Source: Eledone cirrhosa
Taxonomy: Eukaryota
DNA length: 64,000 nucleotides
Assembly: GCA_964016885.1 (NCBI GenBank)
Contig: OZ024746.1
Coordinates: 68,572,001 to 68,636,000 of the forward strand
Reading direction: 5' to 3'
The translations under genes and the position numbers were made by a program. The notes under the pieces were generated by a model that had not been told where the DNA came from, made no database searches, and saw only the letters and a program-made list of their open reading frames with translations. Shown here piece by piece: positions 1,649 to 53,383 of this stretch (position 1 is the first letter of the stretch; every line of letters begins with the position of its first letter).

Positions 1649-2757
1649 TACAATAGTATAAGTTGGAATTATTTTATTTGTAACACATGACTGGAAGACT
1701 GATTGTACATTGTAGAGTTAACAACCTATAGAACCAAATAGCCAGGTGTTGGCTCTGACTCTCTGTATAAAAGTTAAATTTATGATGCATGTGTTAAAAG
1801 TGTGAACTCAATGGTACAAAAGAAAAATATGGTGACAGTGAGACACATTTAAGAGAATTTAAGTCAAGGATGAGCAACTAGTGGTGAAAAGTGTTGGTGT
1901 ATGATTTGTTAGTTAATAAATAAAAATTAGAAATATAGAAATAGTGATTTTCCATCATAAGGCAGCCATCTTGGATAGTGGTAGTAAAAATATAAATAAT
2001 ATGTTGCAAACATGATGATATAATGATAATGAAACACACCAGGGAGAATGAAAATATCACGTACTAGTGGAAAAAAATAGGCATGCATGACTTCATGTTT
2101 TTTTTTTATTTTAAATTAGAGAGATAGAAATAGTGACTTCCACATCATATTTTAAATATCATCAATCAATATCTGTTTTCCCTGTTAATAAGGGTCAGGG
2201 AAGTCTACATAGACCAAGTCAGTACTGAAACAGGACTACTGATTGCCATGACAGGCCAGGGCAGGAGTCTGCATCATGCTTCCTTATGGTCTTATATTCC
2301 ATTGAGTGCACAAGGGAGGTTATCATGTCTTTAACACAACTAAAAGGCCTTCCCAACCCTTTGTTTGACAGGTTTTCTAGGGCTGGATGCATGCATGATT
2401 TCTTAGCTTTTTAATTTCAAATTAGAAAAATATAAATAGTAACTTTCACATCACATTTTAGATAGAGGGAATAAAAATGTAACTGGTTTGTTGATAGACA
2501 TGATCACTACAAAATAAAATAAATAAGTTATATATGAATTGGTGGTATCAGGTAGATTGGTAATGTAGAACATTTTCTGGTAGCATTGGACAGATTTGTA
2601 ATGAAAGAGCTAATGAATTTTATAAAGAAATGACTATTAGTGTTAACGTTTTTATATATTATATTATACATGTATGCATATGTACTTATATGCATGTATG
2701 CATGTAAATTTACACACATTACTGTGTATATATTGAAAATATTATTGAATTTGACCA

Positions 2758-3135
2758 TAAAACATTTGTAGGTTTTACTGATTTTAACTACAAAATATTT
2801 GTAGGTTTTACTGAATTTAGCTACAAAACATTTGTAGGTTTTACTGAATTTAACTACAAAACATTTGTAGGTTTTACTGAATTTAACTACAAAACATTTG
2901 TAGGTTTTACTGAATTTAACTACAAAACATTTGTAGGTTTTACTGAATTTAGCTACAAAACATTTGTAGGTTTTACTGAATTTAAATAAAAAACATTTGT
3001 AAGTTTTACTGATTTTAGCTACAAAACATTTGTAGGTTTTACTGAATTTAACTTAAAAACATTTGTAGGTTTTACTGCTACAAAACATTTGTAGGTTTTA
3101 CTGAATTTAACTACAAAACATTTGTAAGTTTTACT
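2758..3135. repeat. 33-bp minisatellite, ~11 units
   Basis: Unit ctacaaaacatttgtaggttttactgaatttaa at 2787, 2821, 2854, 2887, 2920, 2953 and onward. Confidence 0.95.
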
Positions 3136-3900
3136 TAATTGAAATTAAATAGTTTGTTGGTTTTACTAAATTTAGATGAAATAGTCTGTAGTTTTACTGA
3201 ATTTACCATATATACTTAAATCTTATGTCTGAGAAATTGGTAAAAATCCAAATCCTGTTTACATAGAATTTGAAGTTGGTGAAAATCATCAAAATATTGA
3301 CCCTGAATGTAAGCCCTCACCCCTTCTACTATCGATTTTTTGGTTACATATTCCTCAGTTTACATTCAAGTATATACAGTAAATTAAAATGTTTTGTAGG
3401 TTTTAATGAATTTAAATTAAATGGTTTGTAGCCTTTACTGGTTTGACTGATATGCCCTTTCTTATAAAAGATAGTAATGTGTAAACTAAAAAAATTTGAC
3501 TGCTATTTTTAGCAGGTTGAATGACTGCATATAATGCCCCTCATTGGCTCATATAATACAGATTGGTTAATCTGGCACAAACATGACATATATAGAAATG
3601 AAAGAACTGAACTAAAATGAGCAAAACAACAAAATATGATTTATCTAAATATGTAAACCTATATTTATCTTCTTAAGGTGTTCAAAATACTGGGATATTT
3701 TATTAACCCTACAAATGATTATATTATCATTTTGTAAGGAAAATATTTATTGGTCTTTTTCAGCATATTTATGAGAAATGAGTACGTTTGATGTAAAAAA
3801 AATATATTTTCTTATGATCATGAATAGATGTATGCACAAATACATATGTATGTACATTTGTACATAAATAGATATATTTCTATATATATATAGATAGATA

Positions 3901-17578: not shown

Positions 17579-18161
17579 ATATTTATTAAAATAACAGATT
17601 AAAGTTTAAGCAAAGAATCGCTGCTTTGACCCTTAACGGGATCTTCTGAAACTAACAAAGTCAATCTGTGAACGCAGAAGTGAATATTTAAAAAAATTGC
17701 GTGCAATTGTTCTCCCCGCTCCACATATGACGTATTATCTTTGTTCCATTCATTGCCAGAGAACGTCTCTATGAACTACCTAATAGAATATTAGTCTACG
17801 ACTTCTTTCATACCATAAACGTGGTTTTGTCTTTGCATGTAATTGTTTTTCACCGCTCCAAATAATGACGTATTATATTCGTTTTTTCCCGTTCTTTGAC
17901 AGGGAACATTTCCACGAACCAAAGTATCGTCTTCCTGTCTTCCTCCGGTTGCAACGCTTTTTGAAATATTCACTTCTGTGTTCACAGATTAACTTTGTTA
18001 GCTTCAGAAGATCCCGTTAAGGGTAAAAGCAGCGATTCTTTGCTTAAACTTTAATCTGTTATTTTAATAAATATTTGCTCTATGGTTCTTATATATTTGA
18101 TATATATTTATCCTTATCGAGCCCTCTTTGGATTTTAGTCTTCAAATTTATTATTATTACT
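17579..18161 (+). mobile_element. Fold-back element FB3 (~120-bp arms 17579-17705/17958-18074, tail to 18161)
   Basis: atttattaaaataacagattaaagtttaagcaaagaatcgctgc... is inverted at 18030-18073; tail ends in (TA)n; weak hammerhead-like cagaaga-tccc-gttaa-gggt-aaaa in the arm. Confidence 0.75.
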
Positions 18162-18180
18162 ATATATATATATATATTAC

Positions 18181-18781
18181 TCGAGAGAAGACTACGTTGG
18201 TATGGTCATGTGATGCGCATGAAAGACGACAGCTGTATAAAAAAGTACAGGGCGATAAAAATAGACGGTAGCCACAGAGTAGGCAGACCCAGAAAAACCT
18301 GGAACGACTTGATAAATTCTGACCTCACACACTTACACCTCTCCAAGACAATGTCACTGGACCGAGATCTTTGGCGCTACACAGTAATACAGAAGACCCG
18401 CAAAGCGAAACCTAGTCAGTAGGCACCTCTAACAAAAATACACCCCCCGTTCCACTACCCCCCACCCCCATCCACACCACCCCTTACAATGTAAAGTTAT
18501 GTTGATACCACAACATCCAGTCCGAAATAAATGAGGTCGTGTAGGTGTCACGACAAAAAACACACAGTCCACACTGTAATGTGGCCGTGTAGGTAACACA
18601 GTAAAAACCTCCCAGTACACACTGTAAACGTGGTTGGTGTTAGGAAGGGCATCCAGCCGTAGAAAACTCGCCAGACAGTTCTATACGAGCAAGACAACCA
18701 ATCTTGCCTCAAGTGGGAAAATTCCCGTCCAAACCCATGCAAGCGTGGAAAATGGACGTTAAACGATGATGATGATGATGA
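18181..18781 (+). mobile_element. RTE LINE 3' fragment
   Basis: RRLRWYGHVMRM...GRPRKTW...DRDLWR then 3' UTR and (GAT)n tail, set in (TA)n. Confidence 0.93.
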
Positions 18782-35985: not shown

Positions 35986-36039
35986 ATGAAAACGAAAAAC
36001 GAAATTTCATTTCTCACTCTTAGTATGGCACTTACTTAA

Positions 36040-36630
36040 ATGTAAGTATGTATGTATACGTACATACATATATGTATACAGACGTACAGTAGCATGTATA
36101 TATATATATATATATATACATACATGCAGGTACACATACATATATGCACGCATCAGTTTAGCAGACGCTTATTATAGCGCTGCTTTGTTCGTTTGTCAAC
36201 AAACTGAACAGCCTGAATTTATGCCATACGGTGTTAAGGCAACCACGTCACCTTTTTGTTCAACACTGACACAGGAACGATGTACTAGTTTCAAGCTTGT
36301 TAGCTATCATCAGCACCGTTTACCCATCTGCCAGATAGTTGAACGTTCGAAAGTATATACTTTCCTTATGAAAATTAACGGCTGAGCAGATATTTGTGTC
36401 AGTGTTGAACAAAAAGGTGACGTGGTTGCCTTAACACCGTATGGCATAAATTCAGGCTGTTCAGTTTGTTGACAAACGAACAAAGCAGCGCTATAATAAG
36501 CGTCTGCTAAACTGATGCGTGCATATATGTATGTGTACCTGCATGTATGTATATATATATATATATATATATACATGCTACTGTACGTCTGTATACATAT
36601 ATGTATGTACGTATACATACATACTTACAT
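36040..36630. mobile_element. Fold-back element FB5, near-perfect ~234-bp arms (36040-36273/36395-36630)
   Basis: Arms mirror each other including the internal microsatellite; 121-bp loop contains a hammerhead. Confidence 0.88.
36276..36320 (-). ncRNA. Intact minimal type I hammerhead ribozyme
   Basis: AACGGTG-CTGATGA-t-agc-taacaa-gct-t-GAAA-CTAG-TA-CATCGTT: 7-bp stem I, full core, palindromic stem III, GUA triplet. Confidence 0.8.
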
Positions 36631-36678
36631 ATATATATATATATATATATATTTCATTTATATATATATATATAATAT

Positions 36679-36990
36679 GGAGGCACATGGCCTTGCAATC
36701 GAAAGGTTGTGAGTTCAATTCTCAGACCGGGTGATGTGTTGTTTCCTTGAGCAAGACACTTTATTTCACATTGCTCCAGTTTACTCAGCTGTAGAAATGA
36801 TGTTAGGGATTGGAGTCCATATCATTCGACTGCAAAGTGGTCGTGGAGGTGCCACGGCAAAAAAGCACCCAGCACTCACTGTAAATGAGGTTGGTGTTAG
36901 GAAGGGCATCCAGCTGTAGAAATCAAGCCAGAATCAGTCCCCGTCCCACCCTTGCAAGCAGGGAAAAGTGGATGTAAAATGAAATGAAAT
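36679..36990 (+). mobile_element. SINE family B with ~20-bp head deletion
   Basis: ggcacatgg joined directly to ccttgc; (GAAAT)n tail. Confidence 0.9.
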
Positions 36991-37027
36991 GAATATAAAA
37001 TCAAAAGATGGTTAAAAGAGTTCCCTG

Positions 37028-37098
37028 TATTTTATTATGCGCATTTCAAAAACAAATATCATCATGGGATGATATTTGCGTTCTCATCAGATAAAATA
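37028..37098 (-). ncRNA. Type I hammerhead (left arm of FB6)
   Basis: tattttat-CTGATGA-gaacgcaaatatcatc-ccat-gatgatatttgttttt-GAAA-TGCGCA-TA-ataaaata. Confidence 0.8.
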
Positions 37099-37120
37099 GG
37101 GAGACATGATATGAAGCTTA

Positions 37121-37335
37121 AAAAACACTTGCGAGCAGTGAAGTGTTAAATCAACATATGTCGAAAAATACTTGCAAGCAGTGAAGTGTTAAATCAACAT
37201 ATGTCGAAAAACACTTGCGAGCAGTGAAGTGTTAAATCAACATATGTTGAAAAACACTTGCGAGCAGTGAAGTGTTAAATCAACATATGTCGAAAAACAC
37301 TTGCAAGCAGTGAAGTGTTAAATCAACATATGTTG
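37121..37335. repeat. 43-bp tandem repeat x5
   Basis: aaaaacacttgcgagcagtgaagtgttaaatcaacatatgtcg at 37121, 37164, 37207, 37250, 37293. Confidence 0.95.
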
Positions 37336-37388
37336 ATTTAACACTTCACTGCTCGCAAGTGTTTTTTAAGCTTCATATCATGTCTCCC

Positions 37389-37459
37389 TATTTTATCTGA
37401 TGAGAACGCAAATATCATCCCATGATGATATTTGTTTTTGAAATGCACATAATAAAATA
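37389..37459 (+). ncRNA. Type I hammerhead (right arm of FB6)
   Basis: Same as the left arm but with GAAA-TGCACA-TA. Confidence 0.78.
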
Positions 37460-37583
37460 CATGGAACTCTTTTAACCATCTTTTGATTTTATATTATTTA
37501 TACTCCAGTCCTATAAACTGTTGAGTGCTACTTATCCGATATTTGCATTGCTTTATTGTACTACAATAAAACTCACCTCCTAC

Positions 37584-37616
<33 letters not shown>

Positions 37617-37753
37617 TATACTTAATACATTAACAGAGAAAGCTATTAGCGATACTCCGACCAGCTGTCATCTCACTCAACAAACATTAGGAAATACCTA
37701 AGTATATTCCCAATCATACGTTTGGGGTGCTAACTATATTGTATTATGTGGAA

Positions 37754-39947: not shown

Positions 39948-42334
39948 ACTCTGTGTATGTCTGTGTGCAAGCGCGTGTGTGTTACTGTGTTTACATCACA
40001 TGACTTAATTGTTTCGCAAAGAGAGACCAAGAAAATAAGTACTGGGGTTGATATGATTTAAGGTGGTGCTCCAGCATAGCCACTGTTTAATGACTGAGAT
40101 TAGTAAAAGAATTTATATCTGTAATATTTTTCTTCTTGTGACATGTTTCAGTATTTAACTTTAAACAATCTCAACAATGAAACAAAATCAAAATATTTAA
40201 CATAATGAAATAATGTTATAAATATCTGTAAATTTATGTATCAAAATAGAAATAAAAAGTTACAATTTCCCTTTCCATGGATTCCTCTAGTCAGTATAAA
40301 TTTTGTTTAAACATTTCTCAACAAGCACAGCCTACAGTTACCACGCTACACTATCACTACAATAGCAGTTTCACCAATTATGTCGGGCACCTAGCTAAGA
40401 TAAATCTGTCAATCACTATGTAATGGAACCTCCCCAGATTCTACAGAACTTAGCCTGCTAGTTAGTAAAAAAAAATCTGCCAAATATTCCTCAAAATCAC
40501 ACACTACTGTCTTAAACAGTGTCACAAAATTAGCTAATGAATTGGTATGGAACTGACAGCTCTCCTGTAAAGATGCCAACTACTGAAACCTGACACTAAA
40601 CTTTAAACCTAAACCTCCTGGTATTATGAAATCTTATTATTTATCCTTTAAATCAAAATCTACTTTAACATAATTTCTTGTTGTAATTTTAAAGAACAAT
40701 CTTCAGATTTTTGTTATAAAGTTTTACTTTATTATTTCAGAAGCCATAACAATAACAAAAATGCATTTTTTTTTTTTAATGTTCTACTCGAATGCTAGCA
40801 TAGTCTCATTGCAACTGCAACACCACGAGAAATTTAATTAGTGAAATAACTGAAGAGGCTTTTCTGTCTCTAGTGACCTTCTTCTATTCTTCCAGCAAAA
40901 ATTCCTGTCCATAAACATAAGGTTTCAGCTATGAGTAAATTGTAACTAATCAAACATATATGCATGTAGCTTTCTAAATATATAATTATATTAGTTCTTT
41001 CTGCCAGAACCGATTTACGTTATAACAATTGAATCAGGCAGCAGACATACTTTCTGCACAGTCAGTGTAGTTGTGCTTTCATCAAGAACAAAAGCAAAAA
41101 ATAAAAACCGCAATAACATTCACTATAAAGACTTCTTCCTCCTGATTATATCAATGAAATATCAATAACTGTGTAATCCTCCAAATAACAATTTTTCTTC
41201 GTCAAATTCAATCCTTTTATTTTGATTCATTGACAGTTTCAAAATGGCTGCTTGTAATGTTATAGGGGGTTCATGTATAAACAGTCCATTTTGTTAAACA
41301 AAGCTTTATAATTTTGTTTGACTAAGGTAGAAAATCCTTACATCTAAGTATCTATTGTTGCTGTCAGTCATAATAGCTGACACTATAGTCTGCATTCATG
41401 AGAAATACATAGAAATTATCTAAGTTTATCTTTTCTATTCAAAGATGAAGATAGAAATCTGATTAGAAAAGATTAGAATATATAAATTCTAAAGTTAGGA
41501 ACAACTTTCCAAAAGACCATCACAGAAAGGTGTAATGTTTTGCACACTGAATATATAAACTGAAATAAAAATAAATGCTTCCATTCTGCATTTGTAATAA
41601 GTAATCCAAAATTTTCAATAATATGAATATCTATTTATAAATGATCCAGTGGTTATACTATAAAAGGGATAAATATTTAGCATAGAAGCCTGTAAATATT
41701 GACTGCAGGCATGGCTGTGAATACAGAAAGTTTGCAGTGCAGCTATGTGGCTTCAAGTTAAATCACACACACTGTACAGCACATTGAACAAATGTCTTAT
41801 ATCAGGTTGACCAAAGCCTCATGATTTGAGAAAAGTTTGATACATGGAACTTCTATAGAACTCAACCAAAAGACTGTTCCTATTCTTGAGTACTAGACTT
41901 AATTTGTCCCCCAGTTATATATCATAACTTGGTTCTGTGGGATATTTAGCATAAAAGCCTGCAACAGTTATAAAAGTAACAGAAAACATTATAGCATAAC
42001 TATAACACTGCACCAGAGATGTAGTGGGATACAGGCAGGCAGGCTAACAAAGAAGGAGTGTGTATGAAGAAGATACACAGGAGTAGTAACAGAGGTGAGT
42101 ATTTTGAAAGCAAAGTAGCCAGATGGAGAATGGTGTAGAAACAGTTCAATTTGTTATTACCTCTGCTAACAACATATCGATTCTTTAACATATTGATTCT
42201 TTCTCCAAGTGAAGGACAGATTGTACGATGCTTATGTATGAATTTCAATACTGTATGATAGTAAAACATGGATATTGAATGCAGAGGTTGTGTAAAGGGT
42301 GGAAAGAAATGAGGTTAGTATGATAATATGATAA

Positions 42335-49699: not shown

Positions 49700-49960
49700 T
49701 ACAACAGAAACTCACCAACAGAGAATTGTTTCAGCAGCTTCCACCAGTAATAGAAAAGTTAAACTTGCAGATCATTGTGTTCATTACCATAAGGAGATAG
49801 CAAGTGATCTTGTTCTGTGTTAAATATCAGATGGATACACAAACAGGGATAGAAGTAAAATTACATTGACAACTTACTAGAAGATATTGGAGTGGATAAT
49901 GTAGGAAAGCTCAGGATGCTGATGATGGATAGAGAGCTTTGGAGGGCACATGTAAAGACA
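49700..49960 (+). mobile_element. Ancient RTE-X-like LINE C-terminal remnant
   Basis: RKVKLADHC...EIASDLVL and YIDNLLEDIGVDNVGKLRMLMMDRELWR match RL.FAGHC and YID.L..D.G....L...M.DR..WR motifs. Confidence 0.65.
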
Positions 49961-50029
49961 GATGGGCAGCCTGTCAGTTGGCATAGTTATATAGATAAAG
50001 TGGACTTCACTAAAAGCACCCAAGAGTCA

Positions 50030-50465
50030 GATCATCATAATCATCATCATCATCATCATTTTTACGTCAATTTTTCCATGCTCGCATGGGTTGGGTGGGT
50101 CCTTTTCAGCACAGCACCTCTCCACTCACTGCATTCCTTCGTCATCTCCTCTGTGAGTTTCAGTGATTTGAGATCAGCTCTTGCCATCTCTGTCCATGTC
50201 TTCCTTGGTCTACCTCCACTGCAGCTTCCTTCCACTGAGATTTCTTTGCACTTCTTCACCCAGCAATCATCATTCATGTGCATCACATGTCCATACTAAT
50301 GAAGTCTTCTCTCTTGTACGCTCCTTTGGATTCCTCTTAAACCTAGTTCTCTCTCAGTTCATCCATTTTCTTTCACATTTACATTGCACATCCAACAAAA
50401 CATGGTTGCTTTATTTCTCTCTCGCCACTGCATAACAGTAGTTAGTTGAAACAAAATGGTCTCTT
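50030..50465 (-). mobile_element. RTE LINE 3' fragment (second subfamily)
   Basis: GHVMHMNDDCWVKKC...GRPRKTW followed by (GAT)n tail. Confidence 0.85.
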
Positions 50466-52930: not shown

Positions 52931-53383
52931 AATAATAATATAATAATAATAATATAATAATAATGAAATTATTGTGTAAAGTGCTCAGGTGCACTACAAC
53001 TCGTCAAAGGTGTATGTATTGTACATAGAATAATACACAAATGTCAGGGAAGTGAATAGTGTATGAGTCATGGTATACATGTGTGTATGTGTATGGAGGG
53101 GGAACATCAGGTGTAGTGTTGGCGGATCTCGGGAAGCATGGAGGCCTTAAAGGATGCAGTGTCTCGACAGCTAACAACCGATGCAGGTAGTTTGTTCCAT
53201 GGAGGCCTTAAAGGATGCAGTGTCTCGACAGCTAACAACCGATGCAGGTAGTTTGTTCCATGGAGGTTTTAAAGGATGCAGTGTCTCAACAGCTAACAAC
53301 CGATGCAGGTAGTTTGTTCCATGCTTCAGCAACTCTGAGCGTGAATGAAATTATTGTGTACAGTGCTCAGGTGCACTACAACT
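52931..53383 (-). mobile_element. CR1/L2-group LINE 3' end with internal 60-bp triplication and second tail fragment
   Basis: TLRVAEAWNKLPASVVSC...; atggaggccttaaaggatgcagtgtctcgacagctaacaaccgatgcaggtagtttgttcc x3. Confidence 0.85.

Follow-up and report, generated by a model that had tools for sequence, protein, structure and literature searches.

A head-to-head insertion in a TA-rich tract

The window, by which we mean the whole 64-kb stretch of DNA that was analysed, consists of non-coding, microsatellite-rich, animal-like DNA. A Pfam search with the 140 window frames of at least 65 aa gave no match, and no RT or GIY-YIG gene was found in these frames. The insertion described here (Table 1) is built of two inverted arms, a tandem array at their junction and a one-sided tail. 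Translation of the right arm in three frames yielded two frames full of stops and a third that is short, and self-BLAST found no second copy of the family within the 64-kb window.

Table 1. Features of the insertion and its immediate flanks, in window coordinates.
Feature	Position	Strand	Remarks
Left flank, interspersed repeat with (ATGAA)n end	36665..36991	+	Start approximate; self-BLAST
Whole insertion	36992..37583	.	Two 5'-truncated 3' ends of a single high-copy family with hammerheads, placed head-to-head and reading outwards from the centre
Left arm, without tail	36992..37164	-	Outer end equals right-arm position 37495, a recurring family stop before (TA)n
Type I hammerhead, left copy	37028..37098	-	Loop III region is the family-type palindrome TGCGCA
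43-bp unit, five copies	37121..37333	-	U1 37121, U2 37164, U3 37207, U4 37250, U5 37293
Direct repeats of 7 bp, lag 44 nt, spanning the turn	37296..37363	.	37296-37302 with 37340-37346; 37313-37319 with 37357-37363
Loopless perfect palindrome	37306..37353	.	Centre CAT/ATG
Right arm	37323..37495	+	Inverted-repeat search
Internal hairpin of the unit	37340..37363	+	7-bp stem with a loop of 10 nt; -3.7 kcal/mol (DNA)
Type I hammerhead, right copy	37389..37459	+	Predicted cut after 37451; loop III palindrome broken
One-sided tail, 88 nt	37496..37583	+	Family sequence, not flank
(AT)18.5 microsatellite, likely target	37584..37620	.	No target-site duplication discernible

The arms of 173 nt each are 98% complementary, with three mismatches at right-arm positions 37325, 37447 and 37462. 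They meet in a perfect palindrome of 24+24 nt with zero loop, centred between 37329 and 37330, of which the hexamer CATATG (37327-37332) is the portion found in uninverted family members. A first reading of this DNA from its letters alone (the sequence-only reading) had described a loopless palindrome with the turn CAACAT/ATGTTG and a 43-bp segment occurring five times on one arm and once on the other. Both descriptions were borne out: the palindrome is gapless at CAT/ATG, and the 43-bp unit is present 5.0 times on the left (95% matches) and in one copy on the right. The tail has no mirror image; its length is 88 nt, or 80 nt when counted from the family end point at 37502. The two arms use the two recurring ends of the family, the left one stopping at the equivalent of 37495 and the right one at 37583. 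Both arms carry the minor allele at 37488, where the family has C in about 95% of the depth in run X1 (described below), and this shared allele points to one template for both arms.

Arms and units differ at CpG-type sites, in one case against a near-fixed family allele, the flanks differ, and both ends of the insertion coincide with family end points. These observations speak against an assembly or library artefact, such as a fold-back chimera or a mis-expanded repeat, which we consider extremely improbable even though no record in the four public runs compared below spanned the locus or displayed its junctions. On the left, positions 36900-36997 match six other copies in the window at 91-97% over 83-99 nt (self-BLAST). 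This flanking repeat is presumably SINE-like, and we take the interspersed repeats of the window to be reminiscent of octopod SINEs. The repeat was also considered as the cause of the short left arm and rejected, since no mirror image of the tail lies to the left of it and the end of the left arm coincides with a family end point.

An unrelated second fold-back is located 360 bp upstream (36037-36633). Its arms (36097-36273 and 36395-36571) are 100% identical, separated by a spacer of 121 nt, and include a TA/TACA simple repeat of about 100 bp at their outer ends. The spacer harbours a single minus-strand hammerhead (36265-36327; matched by Rfam HH9 with E=0.012, short of the gathering threshold), whose predicted cut lies 10 nt before the start of the inverted arm. 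One TA-rich tract of 1.6 kb (36037-37620) thus accommodates two fold-backs with hammerheads as well as a SINE-like repeat, which suggests an insertion hot spot. Elsewhere in the window, two short frames (18048-18422 and 49859-50299), both without Pfam match, presumably resemble the C-terminal end of a LINE reverse transcriptase, and further tandem arrays are present at 611-1013 (197 bp, 2.1 copies), 2742-3174 (33 bp, 13.4 copies) and 53137-53323 (61 bp, 3.1 copies, 97%).

Abundance and ends of the family

For a survey of the family, the right arm together with its unmirrored extension (37323-37583) served as query, so the array itself lay outside it. Four public runs were compared with this query: X1 and X4 (contigs from two samples of organism A), X21 (raw RAD reads of organism A) and X8 (contigs of organism E). 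With 3402 matching records in X1, 243 in X4, 5241 in X21 and 358 in X8 the family is high-copy; summed contig depth was not taken as copy number, and contigs drop rare forms. As 29 of 29 bins are covered in each of X1, X4 and X21, the tail is family sequence as well. What follows on loose ends and single-letter variants refers to the entries listed, 24 of 269 for the former and 40 of 110 for the latter. Exact-pattern scans of metagenome contigs yielded 0 loci. The public runs listed as containing the sequence include no RNA run, which has no bearing on expression.

Copies of the family often end at 37494 (9 contigs in X1, 187 reads in X21) or at 37502 (17 in X1, 1 in X4, 190 in X21) and continue with (TA)n, and in X8 19 contigs stop at 37582, again followed by (TA)n. 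At the other side, before 37327, T-rich non-array sequence abuts CATATG in the listed entries (19 contigs in X1, 3 in X4, 239 reads in X21), which indicates that the uninverted family has only the 6-bp palindrome. The array junction was absent from all 6 entries for joints and all 3 for between-letter insertions across the four runs; a joint going back in the same manner was detectable elsewhere in the family (X1, from 37494 to 37472). As far as the listed entries show, the 43-bp array is not common in the family, and the possibility raised beforehand that it is a fixed internal feature of uninverted members does not hold among them. Uniqueness is not implied, and a minor array- or CGA-bearing subfamily could be hidden.

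In X8 the tail segment alone is abundant (37492-37582); its loose ends are AT-rich before 37488-37500 and consist of (TA)n behind 37582. Positions 37489-37490 are also the start of the short arm in two of the four inverted joints of X21 described below, and the tail segment may travel as a short unit of its own. The tail of the window copy has minority alleles at three sites (37514, 37522 and 37543), so that either its parent came from a minor subfamily or decay has been faster in the tail than in the arms.

Recurrent inverted joints at CATATG

Opposite-strand joints were found in X21 at 37328-37489 (79 reads, 2 starts), 37328-37554 (97 reads, 1 start), 37332-37452 (3 reads, 2 starts) and 37356-37490 (12 reads, 2 starts), and the side lengths of all four imply head-to-head geometry. 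Three of the four have one end at 37328-37332, i.e. at CATATG, for which a uniform model gives an expectation of about 1e-4; all stem from one reduced-representation run with one or two read starts each, which means few loci and possible library chimeras, and joints upstream of 37327 are invisible to the query. No opposite-strand joints are listed in the contig runs X1, X4 and X8. The weakest of the four is the joint at 37489, adjoining position 37488, where 302 molecules end. At the 37328-37554 joint the junction letters fail to restore a CATATG site, which speaks against a restriction-ligation chimera there. As the start of the other arm varies between joints, the mirror halves seem to have been made anew at different lengths. 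The check proposed in the sequence-only reading, whether turn points in other copies coincide with short palindromes, finds support in the three joints at CATATG. Self-priming has already been inferred from palindromes at head-to-head Penelope junctions (Arkhipova et al. 2013, accessible passages of PMC3846280) and is an already known part of our reading of the locus.

A turn of this kind could also arise if two cDNAs, primed on opposite target strands at two start sites, annealed by their 3' CATATG, with the array added later as in the explanation favoured below. This would make a hairpin loop unnecessary and account for arms that end at two different family end points; the self-dimer of CATATG has -4.4 kcal/mol, and passages of PMC11167929 describe an anole PLE protein, modelled as a dimer, that extends both target strands from two adjacent starts. 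However, both cDNAs would have to halt at the same hexamer, and the minor allele on both arms at 37488 is simpler with one template, and we regard such annealing as distinctly unlikely.

Hammerhead motifs on both arms

The core CTGATGA...GAAA...TA is present on the plus strand at 37397 and on the minus strand at 37090. It is complete, with C3-A9, G12-A14, A15.1-U16.1 and H17 all in place, and is framed by a stem I of 8 bp, a stem II with 15 of 16 positions paired and a stem III of 2 bp. The claim that each arm carries a full hammerhead stands with the qualification that a G-U pair replaces G10.1-C11.1 at the close of stem II on both arms; one X4 contig has C before GAAA. According to accessible parts of PMC4209133, G10.1-C11.1 is highly conserved in PLE type I hammerheads. 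A strict motif scan over both strands of the 64 kb gave three matches, the two described here and one at 36313, and relaxing the motif added one weak match at 40706. Rfam returned no hammerhead for the two copies, neither with the whole window at E<=0.1 nor with 37370-37490 at E<=10; its microRNA matches lay below threshold and were dismissed as noise from hairpins and microsatellites. The second hammerhead is the mirror image of the first and not an independent motif.

Regarding variation in the family, 13 of the 40 letter variants listed (out of 110) fall in the motif: 8 at paired positions, 4 in loops and 1 at N7, the sole core variant among them. All 8 variants at paired positions preserve the pair, while 25 of 46 possible transitions would do so (p ~0.008). 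Judging from this pattern the family's hammerhead looks conserved. In the right copy a private change at 37447 has removed the loop III palindrome, which weakens the predicted self-dimer from -10.5 to -3.7 kcal/mol, and by their letters the hammerheads of the window copy are weaker than those of the family.

Fold prediction for read-through RNA of either strand gave a pairing probability of 0.0 for stems I and II, and forcing the hammerhead fold on the plus read-through transcript costs 88 kcal/mol. Only in RNA starting at the centre is stem II kept (0.99 and 0.98), with a weak stem I (0.14 and 0.03). Because read-through RNA is predicted to fold into one long hairpin that removes both hammerheads, self-cleavage of both strands, as suggested in the sequence-only reading, is unlikely and would be a formal result of mirroring. 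The hammerheads at this locus are probably silent passengers. Cleavage by such PLE motifs is described as poor and in need of dimers (PMC4209133, in part), and hammerhead cleavage was not required for PLE insertion in vitro (PMC11167929, in part).

The motif resembles the metazoan PLE type I hammerheads of Cervera and de la Peña 2014 (passages of PMC4209133) in its full core, its short helix III with a palindromic loop and its covarying helix II, and here too a dimer would be expected to be needed and cleavage to be weak. It differs from them in the G-U pair at 10.1-11.1, the 16-bp helix II and the lack of an Rfam match, and in that the copies lie on opposite strands and point away from one another instead of forming a tandem dimer in one RNA. 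Animal non-LTR retrozymes (accessible portions of PMC7229834 and bioRxiv 10.64898/2026.07.22.740005) are likewise non-coding and low in GC, carry a type I hammerhead and have been proposed to be PLE-derived, but they are head-to-tail tandems with the hammerhead in the unit. We rejected this identification, since the 43-bp tandem unit here lacks a hammerhead and the hammerhead copies are inverted.

Junctions and register of the tandem array

Among U1-U4 and the body of U5 there are four differences from the commonest unit, three of them at CpG, and the allele order along the five units is G,A,G,G,A. These differences fit either simultaneous birth followed by CpG decay or stepwise duplication. 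Each array junction contains three extra letters between the T-run and CATATG (CGA three times, CAA once), which are missing from the listed family ends and mirror the letters beyond the centre. The G of CGA may be one misincorporation that was copied on, or a variant of the parent.

Since the palindrome mirrors the internal hairpin of the unit, a 7-bp direct repeat arises at a lag of 44 nt. In a modelled simple palindrome, direct repeats of at least 6 bp across the centre occur only at lags 44 (7 bp) and 82 (6 bp), and a 7-bp match at the junction was obtained in 28 of 20,000 dinucleotide shuffles, in a test devised after the repeat had been seen. All four array junctions have the same off-register position, one base out of register, and the period is for this reason 43 instead of 44. 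Pairing in this off-register position is weak (-0.2 vs -3.7 kcal/mol in register). A minus-strand 3' end growing leftwards would have this homology behind it; the minus strand is also the one expected to begin at the (TA)n tract and to bear the tail. Variants of the family at 37342, 37346 and 37363 weaken the 7-bp hairpin; A at 37342 makes up 19% of the X1 depth but is the majority among X21 reads, and these shares indicate that hairpin-intact and hairpin-broken subfamilies coexist, a natural control.

Because junction letters and period can be derived from a mirrored unit, the turn came first and the array second, and the most plausible source of the five-fold array is a copying slip made possible by the mirror structure. 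One common register at four junctions is easier to reconcile with a single origin and subsequent amplification than with four independent primings. The sequence-only reading had proposed repeated self-priming or template switching at the palindrome; its first element, a turn on a short palindrome, recurs in the family, but its second, repeated independent priming, is at odds with the single register of all four junctions. In its explicit form, with four separate re-priming events of the RT at the short palindrome during a single insertion reaction, each on the original template, this scenario would place the array exactly at the turn with mirrored letters inside, would leave it unseen in the family among the listed entries, and would allow units born identical, three of the four differences being at CpG. 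It should, however, yield an in-register 44-nt unit or variable junctions, and the order G,A,G,G,A also fits stepwise duplication; we consider it quite improbable.

Inheritance of the array from a minor subfamily that already had a 43-bp minisatellite, the fold-back having re-entered at the outermost unit with four units as loop, is very unlikely. Such an origin would agree with the right-arm unit, which matches the allele and context of U1 and not of the adjacent U5, and 24 of 269 loose-end entries is the extent of what is listed. Yet the array junction is not among the listed joints in the four runs, the letters at the junctions are those of the opposite side of the turn in mirror image, and the geometry of the palindrome predicts the period. 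A telomerase-like repeat addition, in which the A-run of a cDNA copied from an RNA 5' end T5-CGA-CATATG realigned on a T-run 43 nt downstream for four re-copies, would give identical junctions in every round; T-runs bound the unit, the T-run of the family lies just upstream of CATATG, and PLE RTs are sister to telomerase RTs (PMC8557442, in part). The listed upstream ends of the family, however, abut CATATG without CGA, so that a 40-nt unit would be expected, and the 7-bp repeat at lag 44 is put to no use, making this route very unlikely indeed.

Relation to Penelope-like elements and proposed origin

The locus shares with EN+ Penelope-like insertions, as described in accessible passages of PMC3846280 and PMC8557442, an adjacent head-to-head inverted 5'-truncated pLTR with a palindrome at the junction, a tail at one end only, a hammerhead in the terminal repeat, and an AT-rich or (TA)n target without discernible TSD. 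It deviates from the stubs in these passages by its tail of 88 nt in place of 30-40 bp, by having no ORF, and by the five-unit array at the turn. No account of tandem arrays at the turn of a PLE came up in the literature accessible to us, and supplements could show such structures. For an anole PLE in vitro, parts of PMC11167929 report reverse transcription from two adjacent internal sites that bound the tail, and cuts in AT-rich DNA on both strands. Fold-backs attributed to twin priming or cDNA self-annealing of LINE-1 (passages of PMC11702581) also consist of inverted pieces joined by microhomology, with a hairpin by self-annealing proposed, but the LINE-1 pieces adjoin one another with an overlap or gap of 1-10 bp, and TSDs of 12-18 bp flank them, whereas the arms here overlap over 173 nt. 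As no RT gene is linked, the Penelope-like assignment rests on architecture: the locus works like a Penelope-like insertion stub and is a putative member of the group in the strict sense, given that no linked RT or endonuclease gene was found and that the tail is long.

The explanation that we favour, and consider somewhat more probable than all others together, is that the insertion is a dead stub of a Penelope-like end of pLTR type, in which the turn came first, one slip seeded the array and amplification followed. In line with published PLE biochemistry, the enzyme of the element would have introduced a nick into the (TA)n tract and copied the RNA into cDNA, beginning at the distal start (37583) and passing through tail and hammerhead to reach the CATATG hexamer. 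At this recurrent site the cDNA end would have turned, and the mirror arm would have been copied back to the second family end point, the equivalent of 37495, leaving a loopless palindrome with a one-sided tail. Mirroring converts the 7-bp hairpin of the unit into the direct repeat 44 nt apart across the centre, on which a minus-strand 3' end about 37 nt past the centre may have re-primed one base off register. Copying of the centre for a second time would have produced the initial 43-bp duplicate, in which part of the turn is retained. Slippage, in the same reaction or later, could then have amplified this single junction to five units, probably by ordinary means after the seeding slip, and the units would later have decayed mainly at CpG.

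Either the reverse transcriptase or a host polymerase, with about even odds, may have made the seeding slip; in animal genomes long palindromes are unstable, and slippage of the host enzyme on such a perfect one would result in an indistinguishable sequence. Several features count against the stub reading: no autonomous partner was seen in the window, the tail has 88 nt, the period is 43 and not 44, and CGA in three of the four junctions demands one copied misincorporation or another source.

We regard it as unlikely that the array is instead a fossil of rolling-hairpin or repeat-addition synthesis, in which the telomerase-related Penelope RT turned at CATATG, re-primed on the 7-bp hairpin and cycled several times. 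If it were, the strand asymmetry of the junctions would identify the tailed arm as first-strand cDNA made on a sense RNA and the mirror arm as copied from DNA, and would thus answer the question of sense versus antisense template left open by Arkhipova et al. 2013. It would also predict 43/44-bp arrays on the untailed arm only, in other hairpin-intact copies. How Penelope-like elements build their inverted ends is stated as unresolved in accessible parts of PMC8557442 and PMC11167929.

The palindrome and the paired hammerheads of this locus are ordinary; the new detail is the mirrored 7-bp hairpin that forms a direct repeat across the turn. If the enzyme of the element wrote such arrays, a period of 43-44 should be found only beside CATATG turns, on the untailed arm and in hairpin-intact copies. 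If arrays prove to be single-locus and polymorphic, the insertion would illustrate on a small scale how the palindrome of a retroelement can give rise to a minisatellite.
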